Assembly (NCBI GenBank): GCA_028281885.1
Contig: JANQJA010000011.1
Location: 129,200-193,199, forward strand
Length of the DNA: 64,000 nucleotides
Source: Pseudomonadales bacterium
GTDB taxonomy: Bacteria > Pseudomonadota > Gammaproteobacteria > Pseudomonadales > Azotimanducaceae
Reading direction: 5' to 3'
Shown here: piece by piece, positions 19,009-56,929 of the stretch
How the letters are laid out: the number at the start of each line of letters is the position of its first letter
Position numbering within the stretch: position 1 is the first letter of the stretch
Program-made: the position numbers and the translations under genes
Notes under the pieces: generated by a model
The model's database searches: none
The model's input: the letters and a program-made list of their open reading frames with translations, nothing else
What the model was told of the DNA's origin: nothing

Positions 19009-21039
19009 ATGAATGAACCACCAATTAATGGATCGGCGCCGATCACTGTTGTTGTCACGGGCATGCACCGTTCCGGAACCTCGGCGGTTGCAGGGTATCT
19101 CGAACAACTCGGCTTCGCGGTCCCGTCAGAGACTCTGCCGCCGCATCCGCAGGACAACCCGGGTGGCTATTTTGAGCCCCGGGAACTGGTTCAGTTGAAC
19201 AATGGATTGCTGCGAGAGATGGGTGCGAGCTGGCAATCCTTCGATCCGATCGATCCCGGGTGTTTTTCTGCGGCAAATGTTGCGGGGTTCCGTTCCGATG
19301 CCAGGGCATACCTGCAGAAGGTCGGCGTCGGCAAACAATCACTGGTGCTGAAAGATCCACGTCTGACACGACTGATGCCGTTCTGGGCGCCGTTGCTGAA
19401 AGAGTGTGACCCTGATTTTCGGCTGGTTCATGTGCTGCGCGATGCCTGTTCGGTAGCGGTGTCGCTCGGACGGCGGGCACTTGATCCGAAACTTGCACCT
19501 GCAGCTATTGAGGACCCGCTCCATGGCACCTTGCTCTGGCTGCGATATAACCTGGATCTCTGTTGCCAGGCGCGGGCATTGGGCGTGTCCCCCTGGGTGG
19601 TTGGATACGAAGAATTTGTGTCGGAACGTGGGGTTCGTGAAACCCTGCTTCGCTCGCTGGGGCTCTCCGCCATCACCAAAGAATTTGTTCCAAACCGGCC
19701 GGGCCGTGCTGACGCAGAACCTGACCTCCCTGCGGACTGGATTCATGTCCTGAAGGCCGTAGCCGATGCGATCCGCAGACTCGATGTTGATGCGCTGAAC
19801 GGCATCGACGCGCTTGCATCGCAACCAATCCCCGCTTCGAATCAGAGGGCTCCGGACTTGCCCCCGGTAGAGCTTCTTGCAGCAGCGAGGGTCCGTCACG
19901 TTAGCGCACACTGGTCGAAGCCGTGGCCATATCTCGATACGCCAAAGAAGCAGACGAGTACACCAGGGCGCGATCCCGGTCGGGATGGAATTCTGTTTGT
20001 AACGGCAGATGCGGGTACCAGGGGGCATCTCTACCGGGTTAAGAACCCGGTTGATGCGCTGTCTCGAAAAGGACTGACCACGCACTGGACGACACTGGAG
20101 CACGTCTCGAGCGACCTCAGCGTCCTCGCTGGCTATCGTCATCTGATCGTGCATCGCTGTGAATGGGGCGAGGGTCTGGCAGCGTTGTATCGGGCCGCGC
20201 GCGCCGCCGGGATCAGGATCGTCTATGACATCGATGACCTGGTGTTTGATCCTGCCGTGCTGGAAGCAGGCGAGGTCGATTTCATCCAGCGTCTGAACCA
20301 GGCCGAGCGGGCCATGTGGAGGGCGCGGTTTAAGAAGTATCGTCAGGCCCTCTGCCATGCAGACCTGTCGCTGGTACCGACCGCGAGCCTACAGGAGGCG
20401 GCTGAGGCAGCGGGGACACCATCGGTGATCAAACCCAACGGGCTGAGTCCGGAGACGATCGCATTGAGTCGTTTCTGGGCATCACGGCCGCTTTCTGGTG
20501 CCAGGAGACTGGGCTATGCCAGCGGTACGCCCACTCACCAGGGAGATTTTGCGCAGATAGAAGATGTACTGATCGATTGTCTGGGGCAGCATCCCGACTG
20601 GACTATCACTGTGATTGGCCATCTCGACGTGACCTCGCTCAGAAAGCGGCTGGGAGCAGGCAGAGTCGAAACCAGGCCGGTGGTCGCACACATCAACCTT
20701 GCTTTCGAACTCGCGCGGCTCGATCTGACCGTAGCGCCGCTTGAGATGAATAACGCCTTTTGTGCTGGCAAGAGTCCGCTCAAGTGGTTCGAGGCTGCGG
20801 CCGTGGACGTACCTGTCATCGCGTCAGAGACGGGCGCGTTTCGTGATGCGATCAGGCACGGCAAAACGGGCCTGCTGGCGGCTGACGAAACTGAATGGGC
20901 AGTCGCCCTCGAGCGATTGATGTCGAGCGCCGATGAACGTCGAGCCATCGCGTCGGCAGCGAGCGAAGATGTCCTTGGCAGGTTCGCGGAAGATATTATC
21001 GCCGACGCTTTGATAAGAGAGCTGGACCTGATCGGTTGA
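19009..21039 (+). CDS. Bifunctional sulfotransferase (N-terminal) / glycosyltransferase family 1 (C-terminal) fusion protein
   Basis: The N-terminus has the 5'-PSB-like loop VVVTGMHRSGTS. The C-terminal ~340 aa contain GT1/GT4 motifs (GKSPLKWFEAAAVDVPVIASETGAFRDAIRHGKTGLLA). Confidence 0.75.
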   Translation: MNEPPINGSAPITVVVTGMHRSGTSAVAGYLEQLGFAVPSETLPPHPQDNPGGYFEPRELVQLNNGLLREMGASWQSFDPIDPGCFSAANVAGFRSDARAYLQKVGVGKQSLVLKDPRLTRLMPFWAPLLKECDPDFRLVHVLRDACSVAVSLGRRALDPKLAPAAIEDPLHGTLLWLRYNLDLCCQARALGVSPWVVGYEEFVSERGVRETLLRSLGLSAITKEFVPNRPGRADAEPDLPADWIHVLKAVADAIRRLDVDALNGIDALASQPIPASNQRAPDLPPVELLAAARVRHVSAHWSKPWPYLDTPKKQTSTPGRDPGRDGILFVTADAGTRGHLYRVKNPVDALSRKGLTTHWTTLEHVSSDLSVLAGYRHLIVHRCEWGEGLAALYRAARAAGIRIVYDIDDLVFDPAVLEAGEVDFIQRLNQAERAMWRARFKKYRQALCHADLSLVPTASLQEAAEAAGTPSVIKPNGLSPETIALSRFWASRPLSGARRLGYASGTPTHQGDFAQIEDVLIDCLGQHPDWTITVIGHLDVTSLRKRLGAGRVETRPVVAHINLAFELARLDLTVAPLEMNNAFCAGKSPLKWFEAAAVDVPVIASETGAFRDAIRHGKTGLLAADETEWAVALERLMSSADERRAIASAASEDVLGRFAEDIIADALIRELDLIG

Positions 21040-21043
21040 TATG

Positions 21044-21712
21044 CTATCGCTGAAACACGGCCATCTGCTGCGCTCTTGGATGCCGCCAGGTGTCATCGAA
21101 GGAAGCCGAAAGTCCGCCGAGTTCAGCCATCCGGCTGACTTCTTTGCGGGAATAGTGATAGGGGTTCATGTCGTGGTGGGTGACGATGCCGCCTGGCTGA
21201 TGGAGGATTTCATCGACCCATGCATCACCTGGCGCCTCGAAATAGGTTGCGTACATCGCTGCATTGGGGCCGAGCACACTCGCGGCTGATTTCAGGCACC
21301 TGACAATCTGGTCGCGGGGCAGATGGGTGAAAACGGACACTGCGACTGCCATGTCGAATGAATCGCCAAGCCTGTCGAAAGCAAATTCGCCATTGACGAT
21401 TAGTTTTGGTGCCTTTGCGGTCAGTCCTGCTTCCGTTAGCTCCACCTCGGCGGCCTTGATCAATGAAGGATTCACGTCGATGCCGTAATAGTTGCCTGTG
21501 GCCAGATAGTCGATGAAATGCAATCCACCCCGCAGGCTGCCGCAGCCGACATCCAGTAATCGGTGTTCAGGTTTCAGGCCCCGGGAGATGAGATAGTCGA
21601 GCTGCAGGCGGCCGACCTGCTCCCACATACCACCAACAAATTCGCGATGGCGCTTCTGCCGAATATCCTCGGCACTCAGTTCTTCACGGTCATATTTGCT
21701 GTTTCCGTTCAC
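21044..21712 (-). CDS. Class I SAM-dependent methyltransferase
   Basis: LLDVGCGSLRGG motif I. In-frame GTG 21712 is preceded by AAGGGGGA and lies just downstream of the OST stop (TAA at 21723-21725). The ORF-track start at 21871 would overlap the OST gene. Confidence 0.75.
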   Translation of the reverse strand: MNGNSKYDREELSAEDIRQKRHREFVGGMWEQVGRLQLDYLISRGLKPEHRLLDVGCGSLRGGLHFIDYLATGNYYGIDVNPSLIKAAEVELTEAGLTAKAPKLIVNGEFAFDRLGDSFDMAVAVSVFTHLPRDQIVRCLKSAASVLGPNAAMYATYFEAPGDAWVDEILHQPGGIVTHHDMNPYHYSRKEVSRMAELGGLSASFDDTWRHPRAQQMAVFQR

Positions 21713-21722
21713 AACGTCCCCC

Positions 21723-23882
21723 TTAATTGATCCGCCAGGCTCTTGCGGTAACGGTAGAGACCACCTCCTCGAATCCCGCGGGAGGATTGCCCAGCAAAAA
21801 CGCCTGAACAACCAGAGAATCGAGTAGTCTCGTATCGACCAGCAGTGTATCGCCGCGATCAACCCGGACAATGTAGGTCAGGTTGCCGCCTGGCCGTATA
21901 CGCCAGCGATAAGTGCGGTTGACCCTGCCCTGCGCATCCGACTCGGCAAAGATGACCTGGGAAACGTTTGCATTGGACACTGCTACCGTGCCTTTGGCCG
22001 GGTTGTCGTTGAACTGTTGGCGAAGAATCCGGCCTTCTGTTGAGGTTCCCTTGAAATAGGTGATCACCGGTGGCCTGGATGTTTCGCCTGTTCGGGGATC
22101 TACCGAACAGAAACGGTAAATCTGTCCCAGTTCGTCGAGCATCTCGTCGTTGAGAAAGAGATAGGTGTCATTCGCTGGATGACTGTCGGGAATTACCTGA
22201 CCGCCAATCAGCGCGTTGATCATCGCGTCATCCTGCCAGCGATAGCCCTGTTGCTCCACGTTCAGCGACAGCCTGCGAAGCAGGTTTCCTGCATCCTGCG
22301 CATCGCCGCAGATTAATGCATGGCTGACGGCGAAGAGCAGTTGTTGGTTGACCATCAGGCCGCCATCGATCACAACGTTGGCATTGCTGTAATAGCGCAG
22401 TGGATAGCCATAATCCCACCAGGTGATGGCCAGATCGCGGGCGCCGGCGACGTCAGCCAGTGCGGCGGCAGCCTCTGCCGTGGGGCTCAAAATGATCGGT
22501 GCCTGCAGCGAACTCCGTGCAGCTGAGACCTGGAGAACGACAACTGCACCGCAGGCGACTAGAGCCGTAGTGCGAATAAACTTCGGAACGAACGCGTTGG
22601 CCAGACAAAAGACCAGATAAGCCAGCCCCAGTGCCAGCCAGGGCACGGCGAAAATGCCGAAGCGGATGCCAAAGGGGAAAGCCAGCAATCCCAGGCCGAT
22701 CATTGGCAAGGCGATGGATAGTTCACGGCGTCTCACCATCATCAGAGCCATACCGATGACGGCGAAGACAAATATGAAGGGCGTGGCGCCCGACAGCATG
22801 CCCATGGTGTCACCGAAATCGGTCACGGACATTTCCGCGACCATCGATTGAACCTCAAGAAAAGAAAAGTTGCCCTGCGAAGCTGGCGTCTGCAGGAAAT
22901 AGAAACGGAATTTGTCGATGATGAATTCGGCGCTGGCGATCGCGATGGCCCCACAGGCAAGGACCCCGATGCCGGCGATCATCCTGGGGTTATTGAATGC
23001 AGTGGGCACTCGATCGACCAGCGGCCACAGCGCGTAGATTGCTATCGGCGCAATAAAACCAGCGATCGGCTGCAACTGGGTAACCAGTGCACCCGCCATC
23101 ATGGCCGGTATTGCGATCGCGCTGTGCTTGCCGCTCAGAAAAATGGCAATGACCCCCGCGATTGGCGTCATGGCGGCGAATACAATCCACATGGATGGAT
23201 ACCACCAGCTGCCAATGCTGATCATCAGGCTGCCAACAAGTCCGATGAGCCGCGAGCCTGTCTGCAGCGCGATGATGGTCCCGCAGGCTGCCGCTGTGGC
23301 CAGGGTGACGTTAAGCATATCGGTATCGAGGGCGCCCGGAATAGTACGGCCAAGATAGACTTCCGCTGTGGCTGCCAGGATTGCGGCGGCGAAACCCAGC
23401 CAGACAGAACCCAGTGCCGAGCCAAGCAGGACGATGGGTATGACGAGCAGGGAGCCAAGCAGGGGAGGTGCGAAAACAAAAATGTCTCCCAGTTCCAGGG
23501 GCAAAGCCAGGGCTGCGACGGCGGTCAGCTGGCTGACCGGGAATGCTGTACGCGATCTTGGATCCTGGCGGTCTTCGAGAATGTCCCGGGTGCCATCAGC
23601 CCAGGCGTAGCCGTCGTGGGTCGTGAGAATGTAACTGTCATCGAAGCGTGTATAGGGAGCATTGCCGTAGTCGATGAACCAGGTGCAACGTGCGCCGAAC
23701 GCCACGATAAAGGCAACGAAAACCAGCAACAGGATCGTCGGACGCGTCGGTTTTTCCAGTGTTATTTGCAGGCGTTCCAGTCGGGCCGGGCTTGAGCGTT
23801 TTTGGTTTCTTGCCAACTCAGGAACTCGTTTCTGTGATGGATTTTGGGGCGGATTGCATTGCGCGCGATATGCGCCGACCAA
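21723..23882 (-). CDS. pglB: PglB/STT3-type oligosaccharyltransferase (N-linked protein glycosylation)
   Basis: Polytopic N-terminal domain with HDGYAWADGTRD (23583-23618), DTDML (23313-23327) and FLEVQ. Then WWDYGYPLRYYSNANVVIDGG (WWDYG = 22407-22421) and a soluble C-terminal domain. No in-frame ATG exists near the start. Candidates are TTG 23882 or TTG 23816, the latter lying 1 nt after the acyltransferase stop. Confidence 0.85.
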   Translation of the reverse strand: MVGAYRAQCNPPQNPSQKRVPELARNQKRSSPARLERLQITLEKPTRPTILLLVFVAFIVAFGARCTWFIDYGNAPYTRFDDSYILTTHDGYAWADGTRDILEDRQDPRSRTAFPVSQLTAVAALALPLELGDIFVFAPPLLGSLLVIPIVLLGSALGSVWLGFAAAILAATAEVYLGRTIPGALDTDMLNVTLATAAACGTIIALQTGSRLIGLVGSLMISIGSWWYPSMWIVFAAMTPIAGVIAIFLSGKHSAIAIPAMMAGALVTQLQPIAGFIAPIAIYALWPLVDRVPTAFNNPRMIAGIGVLACGAIAIASAEFIIDKFRFYFLQTPASQGNFSFLEVQSMVAEMSVTDFGDTMGMLSGATPFIFVFAVIGMALMMVRRRELSIALPMIGLGLLAFPFGIRFGIFAVPWLALGLAYLVFCLANAFVPKFIRTTALVACGAVVVLQVSAARSSLQAPIILSPTAEAAAALADVAGARDLAITWWDYGYPLRYYSNANVVIDGGLMVNQQLLFAVSHALICGDAQDAGNLLRRLSLNVEQQGYRWQDDAMINALIGGQVIPDSHPANDTYLFLNDEMLDELGQIYRFCSVDPRTGETSRPPVITYFKGTSTEGRILRQQFNDNPAKGTVAVSNANVSQVIFAESDAQGRVNRTYRWRIRPGGNLTYIVRVDRGDTLLVDTRLLDSLVVQAFLLGNPPAGFEEVVSTVTARAWRIN

Positions 23883-24960
23883 GGTTCATGGCTGGCAGCT
23901 CGATCACTCGATAGGTGATTGCCGCACATCCGATCGTCGCGATCAAGGCAATCCATGCGGCCAAAAACGATGGTAACGACTCTGCCAGGGTGACAGCGCG
24001 GATTACCGGAATGTGCAGCAGATAGATGCTGAAACTGATCCGCCCGGTGATGGCCAGGGCAGGGTGACCGAGCCAGGTGCGAATGATGTCGGGTCCAAAC
24101 AGTGTGCAGGCCATGACCATACCCCAGATGATCGCGTAGGGTCCGATCCAGCCGTGAAAGTAGTCGAGTCCGATAGCATCGTTCGAGAAAACCAGCTGAG
24201 TCAGGCGTGGTACTGAAATGAGGACCAGCGACATTGACAGGCAAAACAACGCAATGCTGCAGGGTTTGAGCCAACGCCTGAGCAGAGGGGCGTAGTGGTG
24301 GCCGGCGTATGCGAGTCCCATCCCGACCATGAACGTGGGCCAGTAGGCCCAGAGGTTGATGGTATTTCGGGTGTAGGCGCCACCCCAGGGAACAACAAAT
24401 GGCAGCATAAAAAGCAAAATAAAAAGGCCGAGGCCAGCCGAGAGGTTACCGAAGCGCCCGATGAAGACAGCCGCTGCCAGCGCGACCGGCAACAGACCGT
24501 AGAACAGGAATTCAACCGGTATTGCCCAGAAGATGGAGCGGCCTTCGAGCATGGCCAGGTGCCTGAGCGCATCCGACAGGTCCATTCGGATAATACTGAT
24601 CGGCCAGGCGTAGCTGGTGGCAACGACGCAGAACAGCAGAACGGTGGTGTAGAGGGGCAGGATACGCAGGCATCGACGTAAAAGGTAACCGCACCAGTAG
24701 AGGGTGCTCCAGCCGCGGCTTTCCCTCGCCTGAATAGCCTGGTTTGTCAGTAGCCATGCGCTCAGAACGAAAAACAGGTACACGCCGGCCTTGCCGATAC
24801 CCTGAAAATCGGCGCCTGGAATAAGGTCCAGGCCAAAGCCACTGAGATGGCTCAGCAGTACGATAAGTACGGCGATACCGCGAATTCCGTCGAGGGCGGG
24901 CATGTTATTACCAAAACTGGACCTGTCGAAGCATACCCTGAGGTCGTCTGCCGATGCCAC
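23818..24960 (-). CDS. Acyltransferase family 3 (membrane O-acyltransferase)
   Basis: LDGIRGIAVLIVLLSH N-terminal motif and ~10 predicted TM helices. Sits directly upstream of the OST gene on the same strand. Confidence 0.8.
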   Translation of the reverse strand: MASADDLRVCFDRSSFGNNMPALDGIRGIAVLIVLLSHLSGFGLDLIPGADFQGIGKAGVYLFFVLSAWLLTNQAIQARESRGWSTLYWCGYLLRRCLRILPLYTTVLLFCVVATSYAWPISIIRMDLSDALRHLAMLEGRSIFWAIPVEFLFYGLLPVALAAAVFIGRFGNLSAGLGLFILLFMLPFVVPWGGAYTRNTINLWAYWPTFMVGMGLAYAGHHYAPLLRRWLKPCSIALFCLSMSLVLISVPRLTQLVFSNDAIGLDYFHGWIGPYAIIWGMVMACTLFGPDIIRTWLGHPALAITGRISFSIYLLHIPVIRAVTLAESLPSFLAAWIALIATIGCAAITYRVIELPAMNLGRRISRAMQSAPKSITETSS

Positions 24961-25271: not shown

Positions 25272-26723
25272 ATGAAAAAACTGTTACTTAGTCTGGCTAT
25301 GGTTGCGACCATGGGGATTTCTGTGGGGGCCAACGCTGTAGTAGCCATTGACGATGGATCCTCTGCGGATGCAATCGCCATTGCGGGCGAGTACACCATC
25401 CCAGCAGGTGGTCTTATCACTAACTCTACAACGAACCAGCTTGATCTTTCGACAGAACTGGGCTTTGGTACTGCGCAAAACGTTTCGCGTGCGATCCGTA
25501 TTGACTGGACTAACGCAACAGTCAACGGAGAGCATACGTTCGAAGTCGACAGTTCTGACTGTACGATGGGTACGCCGGTGACTGGCGTTACCCCGTCAGT
25601 AGGTGGTTCTGGCGATTCGTTCCTGATCTTCGAATTCGATAACACTTGTGGTGAAGACTTGCCGCAGGAAGCTGGGATCTTCGTCAGGGTGGGGAGCCTG
25701 AATGTAAGCGCATTCCCCGTTACCGTTCAGTACCGACTGTTTGAAAACTCATTCGCGGCAACTGACCCGGATAACAACCCAGCAGGTTCAACCGAATCCG
25801 ATACAGTGTTGACATCTTCTGATGCTCTTGAATTTGCGGCTTCAGCAGATTCCGGTACGGAACAGATTGACGTGACTCAGGATTCCACGTTCTTTAACGG
25901 TGGTACTGGTGACGATACAACTCCGTTTGGTAATGCAACCCTGGATCTGGCTTCTCCGGCTCCGTTTATTCCGTCAGGTGGTGATCTGGTACAGCTGACC
26001 TCGGTGAGCCAGGTGGTTGACGATTCAGACAGTGACCTGACGGTAACTGGTGAGTTCGGTGCAGCTGCAAACCTCGGTTGTAACGGTTCTGCCTCATCCA
26101 CTGCAGCCAGTATTCTGGACGGTGCGGATGCTGTTTTCCCGGCCTCTGCCACGGATGATGCGACCTTCAACGGTAACGAGACGTATAGCTGTTTCTTTGA
26201 AGCTGACGGTACTACGATTATTGAAGAAACCACGTTCTCGCTGACTGCGAATCTGGCGGGTCAGACAGGATTTAACGCTTCAGTATTCGGTCCGTTCACT
26301 TTGAGTGAGTTCGACAAGAACGGTTCTTCAGCGATGGTTAACGTCCTGCTGAACAGCTCGCTCTTTGTTAACACGGTTCGTATTCTGAACAAGTCGTCCA
26401 TTGCGGGTGACGTGAGCATCACCATCTATAACGATGGCGGTGACTCGGTGACCTTCCCACTGTCAGTGGTCAATCCATTTGGCCGCAATGACATCATCAC
26501 CTCGTCAAATCTGGGTGCTGGTGAAGCGACACCTGCCATGCGAGTGAGTGACCTGATCACTGCAGCACGTACGGTTGATTCAGGCTTCGGTCAGACCTCA
26601 GCACTGAAGAACAAGTACCGCATTGTAGTTGATGCTGAGTTTGGTTCAGCAGCCAACCCGGTTCGAGTTCAGGTGACGGTTGTTTCTAACGGTTGGGGTG
26701 TCGATATCGACAACATCAACTAA
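25272..26723 (+). CDS. Secreted acidic Asn/Ser/Thr/Asp/Gly-rich protein of unknown function (candidate glycoprotein)
   Basis: Signal peptide MKKLLLSLAMVATMGISVGANA|VV. AGGA lies 10 nt upstream of the ATG. There are 11 N-X-S/T sequons and 4 Cys. Its own promoter and a strong terminator make it monocistronic. Confidence 0.8.
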   Translation: MKKLLLSLAMVATMGISVGANAVVAIDDGSSADAIAIAGEYTIPAGGLITNSTTNQLDLSTELGFGTAQNVSRAIRIDWTNATVNGEHTFEVDSSDCTMGTPVTGVTPSVGGSGDSFLIFEFDNTCGEDLPQEAGIFVRVGSLNVSAFPVTVQYRLFENSFAATDPDNNPAGSTESDTVLTSSDALEFAASADSGTEQIDVTQDSTFFNGGTGDDTTPFGNATLDLASPAPFIPSGGDLVQLTSVSQVVDDSDSDLTVTGEFGAAANLGCNGSASSTAASILDGADAVFPASATDDATFNGNETYSCFFEADGTTIIEETTFSLTANLAGQTGFNASVFGPFTLSEFDKNGSSAMVNVLLNSSLFVNTVRILNKSSIAGDVSITIYNDGGDSVTFPLSVVNPFGRNDIITSSNLGAGEATPAMRVSDLITAARTVDSGFGQTSALKNKYRIVVDAEFGSAANPVRVQVTVVSNGWGVDIDNIN

Positions 26724-26748
26724 GATGATTTAGACATCTGAAGACAAG

Positions 26749-29163: not shown

Positions 29164-29170
29164 ATCTGAT

Positions 29171-46117: not shown

Positions 46118-46909
46118 ATGTCGATCACTAGAATTTTAGGCCGGATTCGGAACGCACTTGTCGTCATTCTAATTGGTCGGTTCAAGTGGAGGTATCTTAG
46201 TTGGGCTTTGACTGAACAGTGGAGGCTAGCGAGGTTTGAAAACATTCACAAAGGTGACGCATGTTTCATCATCGGTAATGGCCCGTCATTAAGACTGATG
46301 GACCTCTCGGCCTTAAATGAATGCCATACATTTGGCTTGAACAAGATTTACCTAATGCAGCAAGAAGTTGATCTTCAGTTGAGCTATCATGTGGCAGTGA
46401 ATGAGCTTGTTGTGCAACAGGGTTTTGAAGAATTGAAGAGATTGCCTTGTCCGAAGTTTCTGTCTTCTAAATCGATTGGCACGCTAAGAAAAAGCGATGA
46501 TATGTTCGTGCTATTGACCGAAGGTGCGAACCTATCCTTTCAAAGTGATCTAACGCGAGAGATGTCAGAAGGATTTACAGTAACTTTTGTCGCAATGCAG
46601 TTGGCATACTACATGGGGTTCGATGAAGTCTTTCTGATTGGTGTTGACCATCATTTTAACGAAACTAGCAAAACTGAAAAACGCCAGTTCTTGAAAGGGG
46701 ATGATCCGAATCACTTCTCGCCTGACTATTTCAAAGATCAAACGTGGGATTTGCCTGATCTCGAAGGTTCTGAACTCGCGTATATGTTAGCGCGTTTTGC
46801 TTTCGAGAGGGATGGGAGAAAGATTTGGGATGCAACGATCAAAGGGAGATTGGAGGTTTTTGAGAAGATTTCCTATAAAGACGCACTTGCCCGAGCAACG
46901 GCGAAGTAG
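46118..46909 (+). CDS. DUF115 (MptE-like / Maf / GT42-like) putative glycosyltransferase
   Basis: CFIIGNGPSL ... GFTVTFVAMQLAYYMGFDEVFLIGVDHHF ... DDPNHFSPDYF. It is a paralogue of the N-terminal domain of the convergent 1519-aa gene. Confidence 0.65.
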   Translation: MSITRILGRIRNALVVILIGRFKWRYLSWALTEQWRLARFENIHKGDACFIIGNGPSLRLMDLSALNECHTFGLNKIYLMQQEVDLQLSYHVAVNELVVQQGFEELKRLPCPKFLSSKSIGTLRKSDDMFVLLTEGANLSFQSDLTREMSEGFTVTFVAMQLAYYMGFDEVFLIGVDHHFNETSKTEKRQFLKGDDPNHFSPDYFKDQTWDLPDLEGSELAYMLARFAFERDGRKIWDATIKGRLEVFEKISYKDALARATAK

Positions 46910-46937: not shown

Positions 46938-49900
46938 CTACCAATTTAGATCCTTTTCGTAGCCCAGTCGGACTAGAAGATCTCCATATCGTTCCTTGAA
47001 CAAAGATGTAATTTTGGGAGTAAAGTGATTTTGCCATGACTCGACGTCGGATGAACTCGTGTTGCGTAGATTAAGGCCTGCGATTGAAGGAACCTTCAAG
47101 AACGTCGCGATTTGTTTGAGGCACTGCTGCGTATTCGCGGCATAGGCCTCTAGCTTAACTGTCATGATCCGATGGTCGTCGAGATTGGCGCCGATCTGAT
47201 CGGTTAAGACCTCGCCGGATATATTATTGAGCTCGTAGAGAATTCCTTCCTCTTCGCCCAGTTCTCTCAGTTTCGGACGATCGAGAATCAATTTGTCCCA
47301 AACCCAGCCACGATAGTGTGTGTGGTGGTCGGTCTTGTGGTGAAAGTAATTCGAAATCAAAATATGTCTCGGATCCCGAATCACTCGAAGCCCTAGCCAG
47401 TCTTCGGTTGTCTGCTGAACCAGTTCAAGAGACCTTTGCGTTGTATTCGCAAAGACCACGACTTCTCTTTCGTCCTCGGCTAGATTGGAGAGGTCAATAT
47501 TCTGCAGGTCAAGTTCATCCATTTGAGAGTAATGGAAGGGTGGTGATTTGACTTCATAACCCTTAAAGTCTGCTCCAATTAGCTCGGCGACCCTGGAAAA
47601 GACCTCGAATCTGAAAAATCTGGAAGCACACTTGTGGTGACCGAAGAAGACGAGGCGTTGTGGAGCATCAGGATAACGAATTTCACCGAGCTGTCGCTCA
47701 ATCGCCGTTGTGCGTTCTTCGAGGTAAGTTTCTGTAACAGATTGAGCTAGCTGAGCGGCCAGATTGGTCTGTGACTTTTCTAGAGATTCAACTCTCGCGC
47801 TTGCTTTCTCAAGCGAGACTCGCTGAGGCGCAACGAGTTCGTTTAGTTGGAGAACAAGCCTGGTCTCTGCCCTCTGGACGGAGGTATCGATTCGGCGCTG
47901 CAATTGTCGCTTGAAACGATTGAGCGCTGTTTCCAGGTAGCTCAAAGTCAGTAATGTGAAGATGCATGAAAGCGTAAGTACTAATCCAACTGTGAAGAGC
48001 CACCAGATGTAGCTCCCGGTCGTTGTTAGGAACAAAGCGGTCAATTCCAACGCGACTACGACGCACGCGAACGCAGCGAACGATTTGCGTCGAATAGACA
48101 TATTCAAAGCGTGGCGTGCAATGTCAGCCAGGCGGCGAATCGTTCTAGGGGTCTTTTTGTTTCGGAACTGGTGTTCTTCGACTAAATGTACATCTATAGT
48201 GGATCTACTGTCGGCGATGGCTGCATTGTGATCTGCCGCAAAGGTTTCAAGTGTCTCATTCAGTGGCGGGGTTTCCTCCGTTGTTGACAAGTTGTTGTCT
48301 GCATTCGGCGAGGTCGAATTGGTGTCAATATGATCGGGCGATTGAATCAAACCATCCAATGTTTCCAGAAGTGTTGGGCGAGATCCATCTGATTCGGACG
48401 CTGGATGTTCCGGGTGATCAATAGGCCTGGTGGTCGGTCGTGATGGTTGAGGTAGTTCTGCATGCTCAATTACTGGCTTGATCAGTTCGTTCAGCGACTG
48501 GAACAATGACTTCTGCGGCACAACTCGCGTAGTGGAGTCTGAATTGTCCGACCGGCGATGTGGAGACGTCTCGGGCTTGATCGGTTGTATTAGCCTACGC
48601 AATGAGTCGAGCAGGTTCTTCGTTCGTCTTGTCTGGTGTTGTCCTTCATGAATTGCACTTGATCGCTCATCCAGCCGAATTACTTTACTAAGAGCACTGG
48701 TAAGCAGTTGGTCATCGGGTGGGTTTAGGAAGCCAATTAAATTGCCCCAGGATGTTGTGTCTTCAAGCTCACAGGGATAATGTTTGATGCCGCGCCAGTC
48801 GTGCGCGATTCCGTAGCGCTTGATCGGGTACCATTCGCTTACATAAACAGTGTATCCATTTTCTACTAGATAGTCTGCGATATCCTTCCATGTGTGTCCA
48901 AGTCTCGAGGTTTTTGAATCCTCGAACTCGCACTGGACGATTCTTGGTCTGTTAGTTGACCATGGGACGCCGCGCAGTACGGAGAGGTCGTGGCCTTCGA
49001 CATCGATTTTCAGATAGTCGATCTCTCCGAGATTGAATTCTTCAATAACGTCAGTGATTGTCGTAGTGTGAACTACATCAACCTGCTTATGGGAATCTCT
49101 GAATGCCATTAGACCACTAATGCCGGTACTTTCGGGAGATCGAAAGAATGGAACAGCGTTCGAAGTAACGTCGGAAACAGCACGTTCGTCAATGTGAACG
49201 TTTGGTGATTCGGAAAATCTTCGTTGGAGTTGTTCACGGTTCACGGCATCGGGTTCAAAACAGAACGAGTTCCAGCCGTTTTCTACAAAATATGTAGAGC
49301 TCATTCCATGGTGTGCACCGACATCGATCATCTGTCCTGGGGAATCGGTAGCGATTAGCTTTGCAATCAGTTCCGACTCATCGATTCTGGCATGATCGTT
49401 TCGTCGAAACGGTTTTTTGATGAATCTCTGGCTGGAGTGTCCAATGTCTGCTGTTGAATTTAACGCTGAAAGAAATCGATCTCTGATTTCATGGATGTTG
49501 AGAGTCGTTCTGCTGATCGCAAGCGCGTTTGAGATGGTCGCCTTTACGGTTGCAGGATCTGACAAAAGTTGGAGGATCGCATGTTCAATTGCGGAAGTGT
49601 CGATCTCTGAGACAACGAGTGCGCAATCATAGTATTTCAAGAATTCGACTGTCGCCACATTTGACGGTCCATGTGCGAGCGTTGGGACCCCTGACGCGAG
49701 ACACTCAGGCATCTTGTTTGCCAGTGAATACTGGATATAAGTCTTGGACCTATTGTCGAAGTTGTATGCGATCAACAACAAGTCAGCGCCTTGTATCCAC
49801 TTTCGATATTCGTGATCGGGAAGCGTCGAAGAAATGATTTGAGTGTGATCGAGGTTTTCAAATTTGTGCTGTGCTAGATTTCTGAAATATTGGTTGGTCT

Positions 49901-51497
49901 TTATTTCAAATCGGATCGGCTGTGTCATTGCAAGCTTTTCGATGGTCTCGGCCACGCGCACAATGCTATCTAAGGTCATATCTTCTGCGAGCGAGCCGGC
50001 ATATCTCACTAGGATTTCCCGTCCCTCTGGTGGCGTCCAAACCTTAGTTTCCCAATCGTTGGGATCAATGCCATTTGCAATTGGCTCGAAAGACACTCTG
50101 TAGCGTTGCTCAAAAGCATCTGACATCGACTGGCTAATGCTGAAGCATCTGTGAGATCGTTTGAGAAGAATCTTCAAATCTGAAAGTAACTCGGGTGACT
50201 TGGGGTCGCGGGCCCGCTCAAGTGCCATTGGCCAGTCATCCACTATCCATGTTACTAACGGTATAGTTGGCCAGCGTTCTACAAATTTCATAGCAAGTTG
50301 ATGAAGCTTGGAGTTGTTTGGCACCGGCCTATACAATATAACGTCAGGCCGGAAATCTTCGACCAATTGTCTGGCGTCATTGAAGCTTTCGACCACTCTT
50401 TGCTTTCCCATGAATGAGAAATCGACTTGGTCTTCTCCCCCAGAAAAGAATTGTAGGAGGTTTGAGGCCGGCCAATTGGAAAAGATGTTCTTCTTTAGTT
50501 CACCGGTTGCAGTACCGTCCCCGGTCCTAGTGAAGTCGACAAGTAAGCATCTTGGACTATCGCTTGGGCTCAATGGAGAAGCTTTCAATCTTGGCCGATG
50601 GAAGGGAGAAAACAGACTGTCGAAGTTTATGCGAGGAAATACCTCCAGTTCCCCGCCCATTGTTGCGTTCAGAATTTGTTGATTGCTATCGCTTACAACA
50701 GTTCGGGCCTCTTCGTATGCGTCAAGCATCTTGTCGACCTGAGGATCATGCCAGCGGTATCCCTTTCCGAAATAGTCGGGATGGAAGTGATTTGGGTCGT
50801 CGGACTCCATATCGAGGATACCGACTGAATACCGGCTGCCCAGATTTACATCTGTAGGAATCTCATAGTCTGCATCTACACCTATCAGATAGATCTCCTT
50901 AAAGCCCATATAATAAGCAAGTTGCAGACATGTAAATGTTACAGTGCATCCTGCGTATGTGTTCTCTGCTGCATCCGTCGAGAAGTCGAACCCGTCCGGA
51001 TAGCTCTTTCTGGGCAGATGCTTGAAGAAAGTTGTGTTCGGTCCGTCGTCAAGACAGTATGCAAGGTAGATTGGAAAGAGTTTGTGCGGCCCTTTCAACG
51101 CGTTTATCGCATCTTGTCGATCTTCAGCGACAAGGTGGTCTTCGACGACATAAAAGGTCGGAGTCCAGTCTAGATCTGCCATTTTTAGAAAGAATCCGTT
51201 GACGGCAAAAGTCACTTCATTCTTAAGGGCTGCAAGATTGGTTTGGTTAAGGCTGGGTCCGTTGCCAATTACGAAGCACCGCTCTTGATCCTTGTATCGT
51301 TCTCTTAAAGCCCGAAGTTGGGGTTGATAGGTTTGCTCGAAAGTCTCTTCATAGATTCGTTTGACCGCACGTAGGCCCGAAAGGGCTTTGTCAGCACCGA
51401 TTTTCTCTGTAGGGAGAAAAATCTCAGAACGTGTCGGTAGTGACTCGACTATGGAGTCGATCTCCGCTTGTTGCTTAGACTCGGTATTTGAAATCAT
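46938..51497 (-). CDS. 1519-aa multidomain glycan-tailoring protein: DUF115-like + GT1-like + FkbM methyltransferase + repeat linker + TM hairpin + coiled coil + sulfotransferase
   Basis: Residues 70-290: CFVIGNGPSL...CTVTFTCLQLAYYMGFKEIYLIGVDADY. Residues ~315-680: GT1-like (ANKMPECLASGVPTLAHG). Residues ~705-900: FkbM (IDVGAHHGMSS...IDYLKIDVEGHDLSVL). Residues 1139-1187: two TM helices. Residues ~1278-1519: sulfotransferase (LVFFGHHKCASRFF, VIRDPRHILIS). Confidence 0.75.
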   Translation of the reverse strand: MISNTESKQQAEIDSIVESLPTRSEIFLPTEKIGADKALSGLRAVKRIYEETFEQTYQPQLRALRERYKDQERCFVIGNGPSLNQTNLAALKNEVTFAVNGFFLKMADLDWTPTFYVVEDHLVAEDRQDAINALKGPHKLFPIYLAYCLDDGPNTTFFKHLPRKSYPDGFDFSTDAAENTYAGCTVTFTCLQLAYYMGFKEIYLIGVDADYEIPTDVNLGSRYSVGILDMESDDPNHFHPDYFGKGYRWHDPQVDKMLDAYEEARTVVSDSNQQILNATMGGELEVFPRINFDSLFSPFHRPRLKASPLSPSDSPRCLLVDFTRTGDGTATGELKKNIFSNWPASNLLQFFSGGEDQVDFSFMGKQRVVESFNDARQLVEDFRPDVILYRPVPNNSKLHQLAMKFVERWPTIPLVTWIVDDWPMALERARDPKSPELLSDLKILLKRSHRCFSISQSMSDAFEQRYRVSFEPIANGIDPNDWETKVWTPPEGREILVRYAGSLAEDMTLDSIVRVAETIEKLAMTQPIRFEIKTNQYFRNLAQHKFENLDHTQIISSTLPDHEYRKWIQGADLLLIAYNFDNRSKTYIQYSLANKMPECLASGVPTLAHGPSNVATVEFLKYYDCALVVSEIDTSAIEHAILQLLSDPATVKATISNALAISRTTLNIHEIRDRFLSALNSTADIGHSSQRFIKKPFRRNDHARIDESELIAKLIATDSPGQMIDVGAHHGMSSTYFVENGWNSFCFEPDAVNREQLQRRFSESPNVHIDERAVSDVTSNAVPFFRSPESTGISGLMAFRDSHKQVDVVHTTTITDVIEEFNLGEIDYLKIDVEGHDLSVLRGVPWSTNRPRIVQCEFEDSKTSRLGHTWKDIADYLVENGYTVYVSEWYPIKRYGIAHDWRGIKHYPCELEDTTSWGNLIGFLNPPDDQLLTSALSKVIRLDERSSAIHEGQHQTRRTKNLLDSLRRLIQPIKPETSPHRRSDNSDSTTRVVPQKSLFQSLNELIKPVIEHAELPQPSRPTTRPIDHPEHPASESDGSRPTLLETLDGLIQSPDHIDTNSTSPNADNNLSTTEETPPLNETLETFAADHNAAIADSRSTIDVHLVEEHQFRNKKTPRTIRRLADIARHALNMSIRRKSFAAFACVVVALELTALFLTTTGSYIWWLFTVGLVLTLSCIFTLLTLSYLETALNRFKRQLQRRIDTSVQRAETRLVLQLNELVAPQRVSLEKASARVESLEKSQTNLAAQLAQSVTETYLEERTTAIERQLGEIRYPDAPQRLVFFGHHKCASRFFRFEVFSRVAELIGADFKGYEVKSPPFHYSQMDELDLQNIDLSNLAEDEREVVVFANTTQRSLELVQQTTEDWLGLRVIRDPRHILISNYFHHKTDHHTHYRGWVWDKLILDRPKLRELGEEEGILYELNNISGEVLTDQIGANLDDHRIMTVKLEAYAANTQQCLKQIATFLKVPSIAGLNLRNTSSSDVESWQNHFTPKITSLFKERYGDLLVRLGYEKDLNW
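48222..48620 (-). repeat. Four degenerate intragenic peptide repeats in the linker of the 1519-aa protein
   Basis: KNLLDSLRRLIQPIKPE (48570-48620), KSLFQSLNELIKPVIEH (48462-48512), PTLLETLDGLIQSPDHI (48327-48377) and PPLNETLETFAADHNA (48222-48269). They are separated by Pro/Ser/Thr/Asp-rich spacers. Confidence 0.55.
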
Positions 51498-53432: not shown

Positions 53433-54371
53433 ATGTCGCTACGTTCTTCGATCCGAAGCTGGTTGAGTGTGACGTTTCGGGTTTGTGTGTCTTGCGGGTT
53501 GCTTGTATTCCTGATACAGAGCATAGACACGACAGAACTGGATTTTTCTGATCTTCCCCTGTCGGGGCTAGATGTTGTAACCGTAGTGATGCTTCTTTGT
53601 CTCGGGGCGGTATCTAATGCTTTTCGGTGGAAACTGATTCTTGTTAGGTGCGGACACGTCATCAGTAGCTTTGAGGCGGTTCGCCTTTTTTTTGTTGGAC
53701 TTTTTTTTAGTCAAGCCTTGCCGACGTCCATTGGAGGAGATGCCGTTAGAGGTTACTACCTTACCAAACTGGGAGTTAGTGTAGAGGATGCGGTCAAGAG
53801 CGTCTTGATAGATCGATTGAGCGGTCTATTTTGTCTATTGATCTTGTCGGGGTCTGGACTTTTCTTGCTCTTACTGCTGAACGTCAGCTTTCAGCTCGTG
53901 GTTGTATTTGGTGTCCTTGTTTTGGCGTCATCGATTGGCTTTGTCTTCCTGGTATCTCTGGACCTGCTTCCATTGTTCACCGTTCCAACCTGGATAAGTC
54001 AAGCCAGAGGGATGTCGCGTAGTGCAAGGAGCATTCTATTTAATCAATCAGAGTACTGGATCTTTACTTTGTCGTTGATTGGTCAGGCGTTGTCGATACA
54101 AGCTTTTATTACGTTGGGCTCCGCGATGAACATCAGTATCGAATTCTACATCTGGTGGGCCTTAATTCCTTCGGTTCTTATCGCGACTATCATTCCGATT
54201 TCTTTAGCTGGATGGGGTGTTCGAGAGGGGCTGATTGTCTACTCTTTAAACGCTTTCGCAGTCGACTCAGAGCGTGCGTTGATAGTTGCAATTTTATTTG
54301 GCTTCGCGCAGGTGATTCGAGCGCTGCCAGGAGGAGTGAGTTGGCTGTTGGATAGTAGAAATGGGAAGTAG
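53433..54371 (+). CDS. UPF0104 / lysyl-PG-synthase-TM-like (flippase-like) membrane protein
   Basis: About 8 TM helices and the LPTSIGGDAVRGYYL motif typical of the flippase-like UPF0104 family. Confidence 0.65.
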   Translation: MSLRSSIRSWLSVTFRVCVSCGLLVFLIQSIDTTELDFSDLPLSGLDVVTVVMLLCLGAVSNAFRWKLILVRCGHVISSFEAVRLFFVGLFFSQALPTSIGGDAVRGYYLTKLGVSVEDAVKSVLIDRLSGLFCLLILSGSGLFLLLLLNVSFQLVVVFGVLVLASSIGFVFLVSLDLLPLFTVPTWISQARGMSRSARSILFNQSEYWIFTLSLIGQALSIQAFITLGSAMNISIEFYIWWALIPSVLIATIIPISLAGWGVREGLIVYSLNAFAVDSERALIVAILFGFAQVIRALPGGVSWLLDSRNGK

Positions 54372-55860
54372 CGACCTCAATCGTAAAGAAGGCTTGGCCT
54401 GTCGAGGTGCCTTGCAAGTATGTTTGTTAAGAACAGGGACGATACTTCTCCGAGTGATCGCAATTTTGGCAATCAATTTTGTGATATTCGCTCATCAAGT
54501 GTTGCAGCGCGAAGAGGTAAACTCAGTCCAATATATGAGTCTCTTGCATTCGGTCAATTCCGCAGCAACCTTTCTGGACCAAGACGTCTATTTTCTGGTC
54601 GATTATCCTGACGGGAGCTTCAGAGCTTGGGAAACTCTCGCAGTTGATGACCCAGGTTATCCATTCATGTTGACGACCCTTGTGGGGTTAGGTGCGATCC
54701 AGCTAAATCCTGATGTTGTGGAACTTGTCACACGTGAAAACTATCACTTGTATGGTCTGTTCGATCCTCGGCACCCTAATAGTGGATCAGTTCAGCGTCG
54801 GTATGATCCAGCCATTGAAGATCTAGTAACGGCGATCTGGCGTGTTCCGTTCTATGTTTACTTCCTGGTGGTCAGTCTAATTTCGATTGTCTTGCTTACG
54901 CTTTATTCGTCATGGGGGCCTGTAAGAGTAATTCTTGCGAACATATTTTTGTTACAGCTACCATTGGTTGCGCCCAGCTTATTTTTTGACAGATTGCACT
55001 CTCATTCCTTGATTGTGTCTTCAGTAATGTGCGGTGTATTGGCGGCATTGTTGATTCTGTCAGGATATAGGAGGTCGCTTCCCTTTACAGCAGTGCTCAA
55101 TATTTTGGCGGGATTTCTTTTGGGTATTGGAGACCAGATGCGCCATGCTGAAGGACTTATCTTGATTGTAGCGATTTTAATGGGATCGATTTTTCTCGAA
55201 AGGACCTGGCCGCGAAAGTTTTTTATTGTCTTTGTGTTGATCGCCAGCTTCGGCCTAGTAGGCTTACTGTCTGATGCGCTTCGATATGAGCGAAATCAGC
55301 AGGTAGAAATATCGGGCGCTTCAACACAGCAATCGAATCACCCGTTTGGTCATGTTGGACTAATGGGTGTCAGACAGTCTGACAATGCTCTCGGTGTCAA
55401 GAATATGGACGAGATTGCGAAGGCGGTTGCGGAACATGCTGGTAAGGACCTAAAGATGGGGCAGCCAGAATATCATCTCGCAGCGCAAAGACTTTTTTTG
55501 GAGTACGTTCGCACCAACCCCATGGAGTACTTCACGATCCTAATCGCAAAGGTAGGTCCGATCGCTCAGTATGCTGCCTTCCGTATGCTTCCGGAAAGTT
55601 TAAAAACTGATGTTAAGAAAGTCATTGCGGGTGGTCTCTGGATGATATTCCTTTTGTTCTTGGCTGTAGGCATCATCTGGGGCGGATTTGAAGTGCGATG
55701 GTTCTCTTGTGTCCTTGTTCTTGTTTCAGCCGGATGCCTCGCGCCTCCGATATTGACTGGTGCTTACTATTCATTCGGACTAACAGTCCTGCTCTTCCTT
55801 GTATTGCTCGCCGGTACTCTTTGGATGCTTGGTTTCAGCCCTGCCCGCCGTCATGAGTGA
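54361..55860 (+). CDS. Polytopic membrane protein of unknown function (possible GT-C glycosyltransferase or polymerase)
   Basis: 499 aa with more than 10 TM helices and an acidic loop LAVDDPGYPF after the first helix. I can assign no confident family. Confidence 0.4.
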   Translation: MGSSDLNRKEGLACRGALQVCLLRTGTILLRVIAILAINFVIFAHQVLQREEVNSVQYMSLLHSVNSAATFLDQDVYFLVDYPDGSFRAWETLAVDDPGYPFMLTTLVGLGAIQLNPDVVELVTRENYHLYGLFDPRHPNSGSVQRRYDPAIEDLVTAIWRVPFYVYFLVVSLISIVLLTLYSSWGPVRVILANIFLLQLPLVAPSLFFDRLHSHSLIVSSVMCGVLAALLILSGYRRSLPFTAVLNILAGFLLGIGDQMRHAEGLILIVAILMGSIFLERTWPRKFFIVFVLIASFGLVGLLSDALRYERNQQVEISGASTQQSNHPFGHVGLMGVRQSDNALGVKNMDEIAKAVAEHAGKDLKMGQPEYHLAAQRLFLEYVRTNPMEYFTILIAKVGPIAQYAAFRMLPESLKTDVKKVIAGGLWMIFLLFLAVGIIWGGFEVRWFSCVLVLVSAGCLAPPILTGAYYSFGLTVLLFLVLLAGTLWMLGFSPARRHE

Positions 55861-56929
55861 TGTACATGCGACGCCGTTTGTTTTGATAACTGGCAATGCA
55901 CGATCGGGAACGACCTTTGTGTCATCCCAGCTTGCGCGCAAGTTTGACATTGCGATTCCCGTCGAGAGCTTTTTTATCCCGCACTTTGAACGCTATGCAG
56001 GTCTGTTCTCGATCCTGGGTCGGGGCGATAGTCGGTTGCTCGCTCAAGCGGTGCAGGACTATCTTGAAATATCCCTGTATGCGGGAACGCGGTCTCCGGC
56101 GCCTCAGAGCATGTTGCTGAACAGCCTGCTGTCAACAATCTATAGACAGCGAGCGACACTGAGTAATTGCCATGGATATAGTGAGTTCTTGAATGAGCTC
56201 TTTAGACTGTACGCGGAGGAGCAAGGGGCCAGCCGCTGGGGTGAGAAAGGTATGAACTATGAGCTAGAACGATTAGAGCGGTACGATCGGTGTCTAAATC
56301 ATATGAAAGTCCTTCACATCGTTCGTGATGGTCGGGACGTCGCGCTATCTTGGATGAGGGAGTGGTTCGGCCCAAAATCGGTAGCAGAGTCGGCGATGCT
56401 CTGGCGACGTCACGTGCTCCATTATCGTGCCTGGGGAAACCAGAATCCAGATCGCTATTTCGAGGTTCGGTACGAGGACTTTCTTGCTCGTCCAGATTCA
56501 ATACTTTCAGCGATCGGTATGTTTTTCGAGTTGAACCCAATTGAGTCAGATGCCGGTTCCACATTGACCGATAGCTTGCGTCACGAAGTTTGGGCGCGCA
56601 ACTTGCGTCGGCCCATCATGAAGGAAAACTCAAACAAGTGGATTCGAGAGATGTCTTCGCGCGACGTCGCCCTGTTCGAGTCAATCGCGGGAGACGCGTT
56701 GAATCGATTCGGGTATTCGCCCGCTACTGAGTCACGATATTCAAAGCTCTTTGTTCGTCGATTGCAGGGTTATGTCCTCAGGCTCGCTGACTCGAATTTC
56801 TATAGACGTAAGATTAGGAGACATCTCCCCCTGGTATTAATTGTATCCCGTCTAATAGCTTATCGATTCGTTTCGTTCCTGATAGATCGTTTTGTCGTGC
56901 GTGGCGTGCGAGTTGTGGAGGTTAAGTGA
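55853..56929 (+). CDS. Sulfotransferase family protein
   Basis: 5'-PSB loop LITGNARSGTTF and 3'-PB-like LHIVRDGRDVALS. ATG 55853 overlaps the preceding stop by 8 nt. The ORF-track start at 55799 lies inside the previous gene. Confidence 0.8.
   Translation: MSDVHATPFVLITGNARSGTTFVSSQLARKFDIAIPVESFFIPHFERYAGLFSILGRGDSRLLAQAVQDYLEISLYAGTRSPAPQSMLLNSLLSTIYRQRATLSNCHGYSEFLNELFRLYAEEQGASRWGEKGMNYELERLERYDRCLNHMKVLHIVRDGRDVALSWMREWFGPKSVAESAMLWRRHVLHYRAWGNQNPDRYFEVRYEDFLARPDSILSAIGMFFELNPIESDAGSTLTDSLRHEVWARNLRRPIMKENSNKWIREMSSRDVALFESIAGDALNRFGYSPATESRYSKLFVRRLQGYVLRLADSNFYRRKIRRHLPLVLIVSRLIAYRFVSFLIDRFVVRGVRVVEVK

Follow-up and report, generated by a model that had tools for sequence, protein, structure and literature searches.

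Predicted sulfotransferase domains of three lineages in separate glycan-assembly modules of a Pseudomonadales bacterium

A stretch of 64,000 nucleotides from the genome of a Pseudomonadales bacterium of the Azotimanducaceae (assembly GCA_028281885.1, contig JANQJA010000011.1, positions 129,200 to 193,199), which we refer to as the window, encodes three sulfotransferase domains of the type that depends on 3'-phosphoadenosine-5'-phosphosulfate (PAPS). The first forms the N-terminus of a sulfotransferase–glycosyltransferase (GT) fusion (open reading frame A, ORF A), the second the C-terminus of a 1519-residue multi-module enzyme (ORF B), and the third is a stand-alone protein with a membrane anchor (ORF C). 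All three are genuine PAPS-dependent-type sulfotransferase folds, as shown by Pfam, by family profiles compared with the PDB and, for ORFs A and B, by AlphaFold models searched with Foldseek. The bacterium probably makes sulfated surface sugars, and from the sequences and structural models we consider it on balance likely that the three domains are active enzymes of independent origin, each working in a different glycan-assembly module. The observations from which we argue are the folds, the conserved PAPS-binding motifs, the domain architectures and the gene neighbourhoods.

ORF A (676 amino acids, positions 19009..21039, forward strand) has its sulfotransferase domain at residues ~10-230 (nucleotides ~19036-19698), with a 5'-phosphosulfate-binding (PSB) loop, GMHRSGTS, at residues 18-25 (19060-19083). 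A GT4-like glycosyltransferase domain of the GT-B type follows at residues ~326-676, and besides the sulfotransferase match Pfam reports three group-1 glycosyltransferase families in this protein. Pfam support for the sulfotransferase domains of ORFs A and B is weak and both were therefore tested independently with profiles and models. The N-terminal 302 residues of ORF A have 350 homologues at E <= 1e-3, many of which carry Sulfotransfer_3 (PF13469). In the family alignments the entire PSB loop G-M-H-R-S-G-T-S is invariant, and invariant positions include G18, H20, R21, S22, G23, T24, S25, E56, K115, P117, R118 and R144; among the residues of the 3'-phosphate-binding (3'-PB) type, R144 is thus invariant and S152 nearly so. 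The AlphaFold2 (AF2) model of the domain has a predicted local distance difference test score (pLDDT) of 83 overall and above 90 in the core. Its best 23 Foldseek matches in the PDB are exclusively sulfotransferases (E 4e-5 to 1e-2, with modest TM-scores of 0.33-0.59) and include the sulfotransferase domains of OLS and CurM, the tyrosylprotein sulfotransferases TPST1/2, the Alicyclobacillus structure 3rnl, Stf0, Stf1 and the heparan-sulfate 3-O-sulfotransferase. The untrimmed family profile was dominated by coiled-coil proteins when compared with the PDB, because the homologues carry helical tails. Trimming to the domain cured this, and nine of the ten matches at E <= 1 are then sulfotransferases, with the P-loop aligned to that of Stf1. 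Stf0 (1tex) and Stf1 (2zq5) thus appear among the structural and profile matches, with P-loops of the form V(T/L)G..RTGTT against VLGMHRSGTS in ORF A; they differ from it in being stand-alone, at an identity of at most 18% and E of 1e-3 to 1e-2. The mycobacterial Stf0/Stf1 and the rhizobial NodH/LpsS-type carbohydrate sulfotransferases work as stand-alone proteins on trehalose, Nod factor or lipopolysaccharide (LPS).

ORF B lies on the reverse strand (46938..51497), and its SULT-like sulfotransferase domain (residues ~1278-1519, nucleotides 46938-47666) carries the motifs FFGHHKCAS and RDPRHILIS. The Pfam match to Sulfotransfer_1 (PF00685) is borderline, at 22.6 bits against a cut-off of 22. 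The domain has 176 homologues at E <= 1e-3, mostly stand-alone proteins of ~240-320 amino acids and mostly with PF00685. When compared with the PDB, the family profile matches ~48 solved sulfotransferases; SULT2A1 ranks first (E 1e-11), and RDPRHILIS is aligned with the 3'-phosphate-binding RNPRDVLVS of that enzyme. The AF2 model of the domain has a pLDDT of 94, and its top 50 Foldseek matches, from E 1e-6, are all sulfotransferases. H17, H18, R104, P106, R107 and S112 (domain numbering) are invariant in the family, while K19, C20 and S22 are nearly so.

ORF C (358 amino acids, forward strand, from the ATG at 55853 to 56929) is recognised by Pfam at once, scoring 67.2 bits against Sulfotransfer_3 (cut-off 27, E 3e-18) and 30.8 bits against Sulfotransfer_1 (cut-off 22, E 2.5e-7). 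Its PSB loop is GNARSGTT, its 3'-PB-type motif is VRDGRDVALS, and hydropathy places a transmembrane (TM) helix near the C-terminus (residues 326-344, nucleotides 56828-56884).

A preliminary description of the window, made from the sequence alone, had placed sulfotransferase motifs at these three sites and had suggested for them distinct families and not recent duplicates. Translation confirms every motif at its coordinates, and the Pfam assignments, family profiles and, for ORFs A and B, AF2 models with Foldseek agree on sulfotransferases as opposed to other P-loop folds. The absence of recent duplication is also borne out. Over 215 amino acids ORFs A and C are 23% identical (pairwise E 2e-4), and the ORF A profile meets ORF C with a probability of 64%. 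Between the ORF A and ORF B profiles hhalign gives a probability of 4%, which is no detectable sequence similarity, and the resemblance of ORF B to ORF C is confined to the C-terminal half (probability 95%). By these comparisons ORF C occupies an intermediate place, with links to both Pfam families. The claim of three families needs to be reworded: we recognise three deep lineages by sequence comparison, spread over two Pfam families, with A and C both near Sulfotransfer_3. The PSB loops, GMHRSGTS in A, GNARSGTT in C and GHHKCAS in B, each hold a basic residue and a Ser or Thr. A scan of all ORFs in the window found no fourth sulfotransferase domain, no sulfatase-family domain was present among the window genes scanned, and single-sequence PDB searches with each of the three domains returned nothing significant.

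The fusion of a sulfotransferase to a glycosyltransferase is not peculiar to ORF A, a possibility we rejected because the architecture is common in databases: it is present in 100 of the 149 best representative relatives, each of which stands for one 50%-identity cluster. Among these 100 fusion proteins 62 are of 620-745 amino acids and 36 are longer multi-domain proteins. We found no studied member of the family. The NCBI gene call starts ORF A at Met19 (658 amino acids, dropping 19009-19062 of the window), which removes strand 1; conservation among homologues supports the longer start. One further A-type sulfotransferase, in Thiolapillus brandeum (AP012273, 509518-530711), has 397 amino acids, ~160 residues beyond the domain length, and adjoins Wzm/Wzt-like ABC transporter genes and a gene for a 728-residue GT2/GT4 protein. 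As an idea only, one could picture this enzyme as a WbdD-type chain terminator that adds sulfate.

The gene that ORF A keeps beside it in other genomes is the divergent GT2 glycosyltransferase gene (17952..18923, reverse strand, Pfam Glycos_transf_2). Orthologs of this GT2, at 42-64% identity, adjoin orthologs of ORF A in the one locus that is closely related to the window (L004, described below) and on four further contigs from at least three other lineages. On these four contigs (L001, L002, L096 and L098) the pair occurs with no PglB oligosaccharyltransferase gene nearby, the sequence covered being flanks of ~1.3-1.7 kb around the fusion gene in L096 and 0.7 kb downstream of it in L098. The sulfotransferase domains of L001 and L002 are 46% identical to that of ORF A, and the values for L096 and L098 are 46% and 42%, respectively. 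The conserved unit is the cassette of GT2 and sulfotransferase–GT fusion, and the adjacency to PglB seen in the window is lineage-specific. In L098 (6753-12115) the GT2 and fusion genes are separated by toxin-antitoxin-type genes (ParD, Gp49-like and others), and a second A-type sulfotransferase gene of that contig adjoins rmlA/rmlC-like genes.

ORF B is best described, from Pfam, NCBIfam and hydropathy, as a string of modules. An MptE/WaaZ-like domain (residues 53-212) is followed by a GT4-like GT-B domain (~362-681), an FkbM methyltransferase (725-883) with a low-complexity linker after it, a two-helix TM hairpin (1140-1185, nucleotides 47943-48080) and a helix-prone stalk of ~90 residues that leads to the sulfotransferase domain. 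We rejected the possibility of an assembly artefact, since the identical 1519-residue product is recorded in both NCBI and Logan. On a metagenomic contig (L008) MptE, FkbM and sulfotransferase pieces are ordered as in ORF B, and on another (L007) a B-type sulfotransferase gene lies among GT4, GT2, CTP_transf_3, 2-Hacid_dh, short-chain dehydrogenase/reductase (SDR) and MptE/WaaZ genes. The combination of a transferase of the ulosonic-acid type with a methyltransferase and a sulfotransferase therefore recurs. The L008 pieces (5639-11416) are fragmented and precede a second B-type sulfotransferase gene; their ORFs seem to be interrupted by frameshifts, perhaps through errors of assembly.

Proteins of many modules that polymerise or terminate O-polysaccharides are known, such as WbdD, WbbB and the products of the Klebsiella O4/O7 ORFs (PMC3482155, PMC11231755). 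They belong to O-antigen pathways that depend on an ABC transporter, for which Wzm/Wzt and, in the WbdD/WbbB type of terminator, a coiled-coil molecular ruler are characteristic. ORF B is like these in that it strings together a module resembling a 3-deoxy-D-manno-octulosonic acid (Kdo) transferase, a GT, a methyltransferase, a membrane element, a helical spacer and a further modifying domain. It differs in that the extra domain is a sulfotransferase, that the helical segment is ~90 residues long and that the window has no Wzm/Wzt or other ABC-transporter family. In the literature that we searched on O-polysaccharide terminator systems we found no report of a terminator that adds sulfate.

The gene neighbourhood of ORF B is a cluster of lower GC content that runs from ~41 to ~67 kb. 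Its assembly genes (41299..46909) comprise, by Pfam, one GT4 and three GT2s, and with them are a WecA-type polyprenyl-phosphate sugar-1-phosphate transferase (44867-45940, reverse strand) and a second MptE/WaaZ-like protein (46118-46909). The cluster also encodes a dehydratase and a nucleotidyltransferase. The cluster extends 3.3 kb past the end of the window, where a 2-hydroxyacid dehydrogenase, a CTP_transf_3 cytidylyltransferase and a GT2 are followed by aconitase genes.

ORF C is found within a module of forward-strand genes (53433..62290) identified by Pfam, NCBIfam and hydropathy. The module opens with a flippase-like LPG_synthase_TM protein (53433-54371) and a 499-residue polytopic membrane protein with no Pfam match (54361-55860). 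The ATG of ORF C overlaps the stop codon of the latter within ATGAGTGA. Downstream are a YdjC protein (56926-57783), a methyltransferase (57713-58492), an SDR of the epimerase/dehydratase family (58489-59457), a DegT aminotransferase (59426-60574), a GT2 with C-terminal TM helices (60558-61538) and a second methyltransferase (61586-62290), with which the module ends. Because of this gene set we label the module Arn-like, and infer that it may add an amino sugar by way of a polyprenyl-phosphate carrier. The NCBI gene call starts ORF C at Val23 (336 amino acids, dropping 55853-55918 of the window), which removes the whole PSB loop; the start/stop overlap supports the longer start.

The preliminary description had treated the whole as one glycan region, which our analysis does not support. 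ORF A lies beside PglB at a GC content of ~0.58, while ORFs B and C are found at a distance of 23-32 kb, past a complete type II secretion system (T2SS) operon, in a block of ~0.48. GC content falls from the one value to the other across ~41-46 kb, and no tRNA or obvious mobile element was found at this boundary (~41000-46000). The cluster of ORFs B and C is thus compositionally distinct from both the PglB island and the T2SS. Following the T2SS operon is a GT2/GtrA-like gene paired with that of a 12-TM protein, and then an epimerase gene (40237-41187). The pair (37336-40213, reverse strand) consists of a GT2 with a GtrA-like TM domain directly upstream of a 621-residue protein with ~12 TM helices and no Pfam match, and looks in sequence like a GtrB/GT-C pair for periplasmic glycosylation.

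The glycan context is common to all three domains: glycosyltransferases, WecA, sugar-nucleotide enzymes, an aminotransferase, a flippase-like protein and methyltransferases are encoded around them. ORFs A, B and C have no signal peptide, and the two TM helices of ORF B, as a hairpin, would leave its N- and C-termini both facing one side of the membrane. PAPS, S-adenosylmethionine (SAM) and nucleotide sugars are cytoplasmic. From these points together we propose that all three domains act on lipid-linked sugars prior to their export, adding sulfate on the cytoplasmic side of the membrane, much as has been proposed for synechan. With the GT2 and ORF A cassette one or two sugars would be attached and the resulting structure sulfated. 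ORF B would combine, in one membrane-anchored protein, a WaaZ/MptE-like (ulosonic-acid-type) transferase, a GT-B glycosyltransferase, an FkbM methyltransferase and a SULT-like sulfotransferase, and would serve a polysaccharide cluster initiated by the WecA-type enzyme. ORF C, translationally coupled to its polytopic membrane protein, would act within an amino-sugar module that uses a polyprenyl-phosphate carrier. If the catalytic activities, acceptors and topology are as we envisage, the product would be one or more sulfated (and methylated) surface glycans, and the sulfate might be borne by an O-antigen- or capsule-like polymer or by an N-glycoprotein.

The possibility of an N-glycoprotein arises from the neighbours of ORF A. 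Only 5 bp from its end is the end of an operon on the opposite strand (21044..24903, reverse strand) that converges on it and encodes, in tightly packed gene calls, an acyltransferase (23818-24903, Pfam Acyl_transf_3), a PglB/STT3 oligosaccharyltransferase (OST) (21723-23816, STT3 PF02516 and STT3-PglB_core PF21436) and a SAM methyltransferase (21044-21712, Pfam Methyltransf families). With the GT2 these genes form a compact island of five glyco-genes, at a GC content of ~0.58, between unrelated genes. One reading is that the GT2 and ORF A cassette helps to build the lipid-linked oligosaccharide of PglB, giving a sulfated N-glycoprotein that is probably also methylated and acylated. We regard this as doubtful. 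The window PglB keeps the WWDYG motif and the acidic metal-site residues (among them the invariant D68, D164, D166 and E328, with conserved D-x-D residues) and, like the enzymes of the Campylobacter-type pgl systems, is a member of the STT3/PglB family. It differs from them in that no PglC, PglK or diacetamidobacillosamine (diNAcBac) genes lie beside it, and its identity to the other PglB homologues recovered, mostly from Campylobacterota, is 24-29%. Its score of 210 bits against the NCBIfam model ProtGlycPglB is far under the equivalog cut-off of 1300, and it is therefore a distant relative.

In a collection of 5.8 billion proteins the window PglB has just one close relative, at 50% identity, and this is the only one above 30%. 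A single-protein scan of GTDB found no close relatives and an alignment-based scan gave loci of at most 29% identity, while a scan of JGI metagenomes added matches at 25-26% only. In the locus of the relative (L004) the gene order is that of the window: T2SS, a 479-residue secreted protein, PglB, methyltransferase, sulfotransferase–GT fusion, GT2, a 761-residue protein and AmmeMemoRadiSam genes. The fusion protein there has 647 amino acids and PF13469, and retains the motifs GMHRSGTS, KDPR and R…S of ORF A. That the order PglB, methyltransferase, fusion and GT2 is kept in the sole known relative would favour a joint function, but the glycan genes are 46-64% identical between the two (PglB 50%, ORF A 46%, GT2 64%) within a region, at 11-37 kb of the window, that is syntenic in its entirety, with housekeeping genes at 67-76% identity. 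The adjacency of ORF A and PglB therefore mostly reflects relatedness and says little on function.

Between the T2SS secretin gene and the PglB operon is a gene (25272..26723, forward strand) for a secreted protein of 483 amino acids, rich in S, T, D and N and with no Pfam match. It has a signal-peptide-like N-terminus, and its ortholog in the relative is 62% identical. Its N-X-S/T sites number 11, where 6.7 +/- 2.3 are expected, and one of them, in the extended sequon D-K-N-G-S, is shared with the ortholog. Judging from its sequence this protein could be a glycoprotein, as an acceptor of PglB, or a T2SS cargo, and we treat it as a candidate and not as an established part of the system. An initiator is also at hand within the window. 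PglB takes glycans whose reducing-end residue is a 2-acetamido sugar and could in principle transfer a glycan initiated by WecA.

Several observations count against a sulfated N-glycan. ORF A and PglB are on opposite strands and, as described above, the cassette occurs without a nearby PglB in the sequence of four contigs. Among 80 other PglB loci in GTDB representative genomes, searched with three lineage-specific profiles, none encodes, within 10 kb, a sulfotransferase belonging to the three lineages. The island holds neither an initiating transferase nor a flippase (the PglK/Wzx families were not detected), and the WecA-type gene, the sole initiating enzyme of the window, is 21 kb away. The link between PglB and the sulfotransferases drawn in the preliminary description is thus weak: for ORF A it is an adjacency in two related genomes, and elsewhere cassettes stand without a nearby PglB. 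It is unlikely, in our view, that the GT2 and ORF A contribute to a glycan which this PglB, deep-branching and not of the Campylobacterota, then transfers; this would be the first sulfated N-linked glycoprotein system in Bacteria. In such a system P-loop PAPS sulfotransferases would be used, unlike the sulfatase-fold enzymes of haloarchaea, and the 483-residue secreted protein would be a natural acceptor.

The statement that no sulfated OST-dependent N-glycan has been characterised has to be confined to bacteria, for which our literature searches on sulfotransferases and PglB yielded no sulfated N-glycan. In Halobacterium salinarum Agl30 and Agl31, identified in 2025, are the sulfotransferases of an AglB-dependent N-glycan (PMC11980604). 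The likeness lies in two different sulfotransferases in an OST-anchored cluster, both modifying the N-linked glycan. The differences are that the system is archaeal, with a dolichol-phosphate-linked glycan, and that Agl30 and Agl31 have a sulfatase/alkaline-phosphatase-like fold, in contrast to the P-loop PAPS type of the window domains.

Substrates other than glycans have to be considered as well, in that one or more of the domains might sulfate a protein tyrosine (as do TPST and RaxST), a lipid or a small molecule. Tyrosylprotein sulfotransferases stand near the top of the Foldseek list of ORF A (E 6e-5) and OLS is its top match; the polyketide sulfotransferases CurM and OLS are also the best, albeit weak, sequence matches of ORF C. 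These structural matches share just 10-20% identity, and therefore report the fold and not the substrate. With ORFs A and B covalently fused to glycosyltransferase domains, and the translation of ORF C coupled, within a sugar-modification operon, to that of a polytopic membrane protein, we find this reading very unlikely. It is slightly less probable again that all three sulfotransferases act on one OST-dependent N-glycan. All three are indeed within 38 kb, on the same contig as PglB and the WecA-type initiator, but ORFs B and C are separated from PglB by the distance and the T2SS operon described above and by a drop of ~10 points in GC, and domains of the ORF B type recur, with MptE/FkbM/sulfotransferase and CTP_transf_3/2-Hacid_dh/SDR sets, in loci such as L007 and L008 where no PglB is called.

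A number of points weigh against our preferred reading, three active sulfotransferases in separate glycan modules. The N-terminus of ORF A scores 23.9 bits against Sulfotransfer_3, under the cut-off of 27, and the PSB loop of ORF B is HHKCAS, where PKSGTT is canonical. The best named matches carry no more than the annotations 'hypothetical' or 'sulfotransferase family protein'. As the preliminary description had it, genes for PAPS synthesis are missing from the window: Pfam finds no families of the cysD, cysN, cysC or cysQ type among the ~50 window genes, nor in 5.4 kb past the right end. The Wzx, Wzy, Wzm/Wzt and WaaL families were likewise not recognised in the window. The missing PAPS genes, the sub-threshold score of ORF A and the unusual loop of ORF B could mean that the domains are inactive relics, or that the organism makes no PAPS, and hence no sulfation; this is the least probable of the alternatives, since the PAPS-binding residues are invariant in dozens of diverged homologues in each of the A and B families, the ORF A ortholog at 46% identity keeps its motifs, and PAPS genes are usually unlinked housekeeping genes. 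The loop of ORF B, though atypical, is the norm of its family and retains the Lys and the Ser.

Some further genes complete the picture of the window. A 761-residue cytoplasmic protein (15662-17947, forward strand), with no Pfam or NCBIfam match, flanks the glyco-island both here and in the relative, in which it is 67% identical. A complete AmmeMemoRadiSam set (13025-15571), consisting of a Memo-AMMECR1 fusion and its radical SAM partner, is unrelated to the sulfotransferases. Pfam at relaxed thresholds gives nothing for the 499- and 621-residue polytopic proteins or for the 761- and 483-residue proteins. Fourteen window proteins were compared with a collection of ~15 billion proteins, and in no case does the 90%-identity cluster include a protein of another genome; twelve such clusters are singletons, and those of ORF A, ORF C and the epimerase at 40237-41187 add only an alternative-start call. 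The source lineage is thus without close sequenced relatives in that collection. Named homologues come from genera that include Thiolapillus, Stappia and Pseudorhodoplanes, and these, with the Gsp operon, loosely indicate Pseudomonadota.

Glycan clusters with several sulfotransferases are already known from Vibrio and Synechocystis, and the window adds another, fairly ordinary, example. The capsule/O-antigen locus of Vibrio sp. KMM 8419 has 80 genes, with three sulfotransferases and cysNDC, and its sulfated product has been determined (PMC11641403). It is like the window in being a large Gram-negative surface-glycan locus with three sulfotransferase genes in separate sub-regions, together with glycosyltransferases and sugar-nucleotide genes. 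It has in addition extra copies of cysN, cysD and cysC and an ABC transporter, none of which is seen in the window, where, unlike in Vibrio, two of the three sulfotransferases are parts of fusion proteins and a PglB gene is nearby. In the xss cluster of Synechocystis sp. PCC 6803, which makes synechan, the sulfotransferases XssA and XssE are from distinct subfamilies and are found among eight glycosyltransferases, and the lipid-linked repeat unit has been proposed to receive its sulfate on the cytoplasmic side (PMC8205485). The xss system differs in being Wzx/Wzy-dependent, with polymerase, flippase and regulators identified and with genetic proof, whereas the window has no recognised Wzx/Wzy and its sulfotransferases are fused or membrane-anchored.

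If it is true that the ORF A cassette feeds N-glycosylation, sulfation would join the known repertoire of bacterial N-glycans, and glycoengineers would gain a route to sulfated glycans on proteins in bacteria; at present this is a lead and not a result. Sulfated surface glycans of bacteria have rarely been documented and their enzymes are almost uncharacterised. The three distinct and well-delimited domains described here, each with clear partners, are starting points for enzymology and for the engineering of sulfated polysaccharides.

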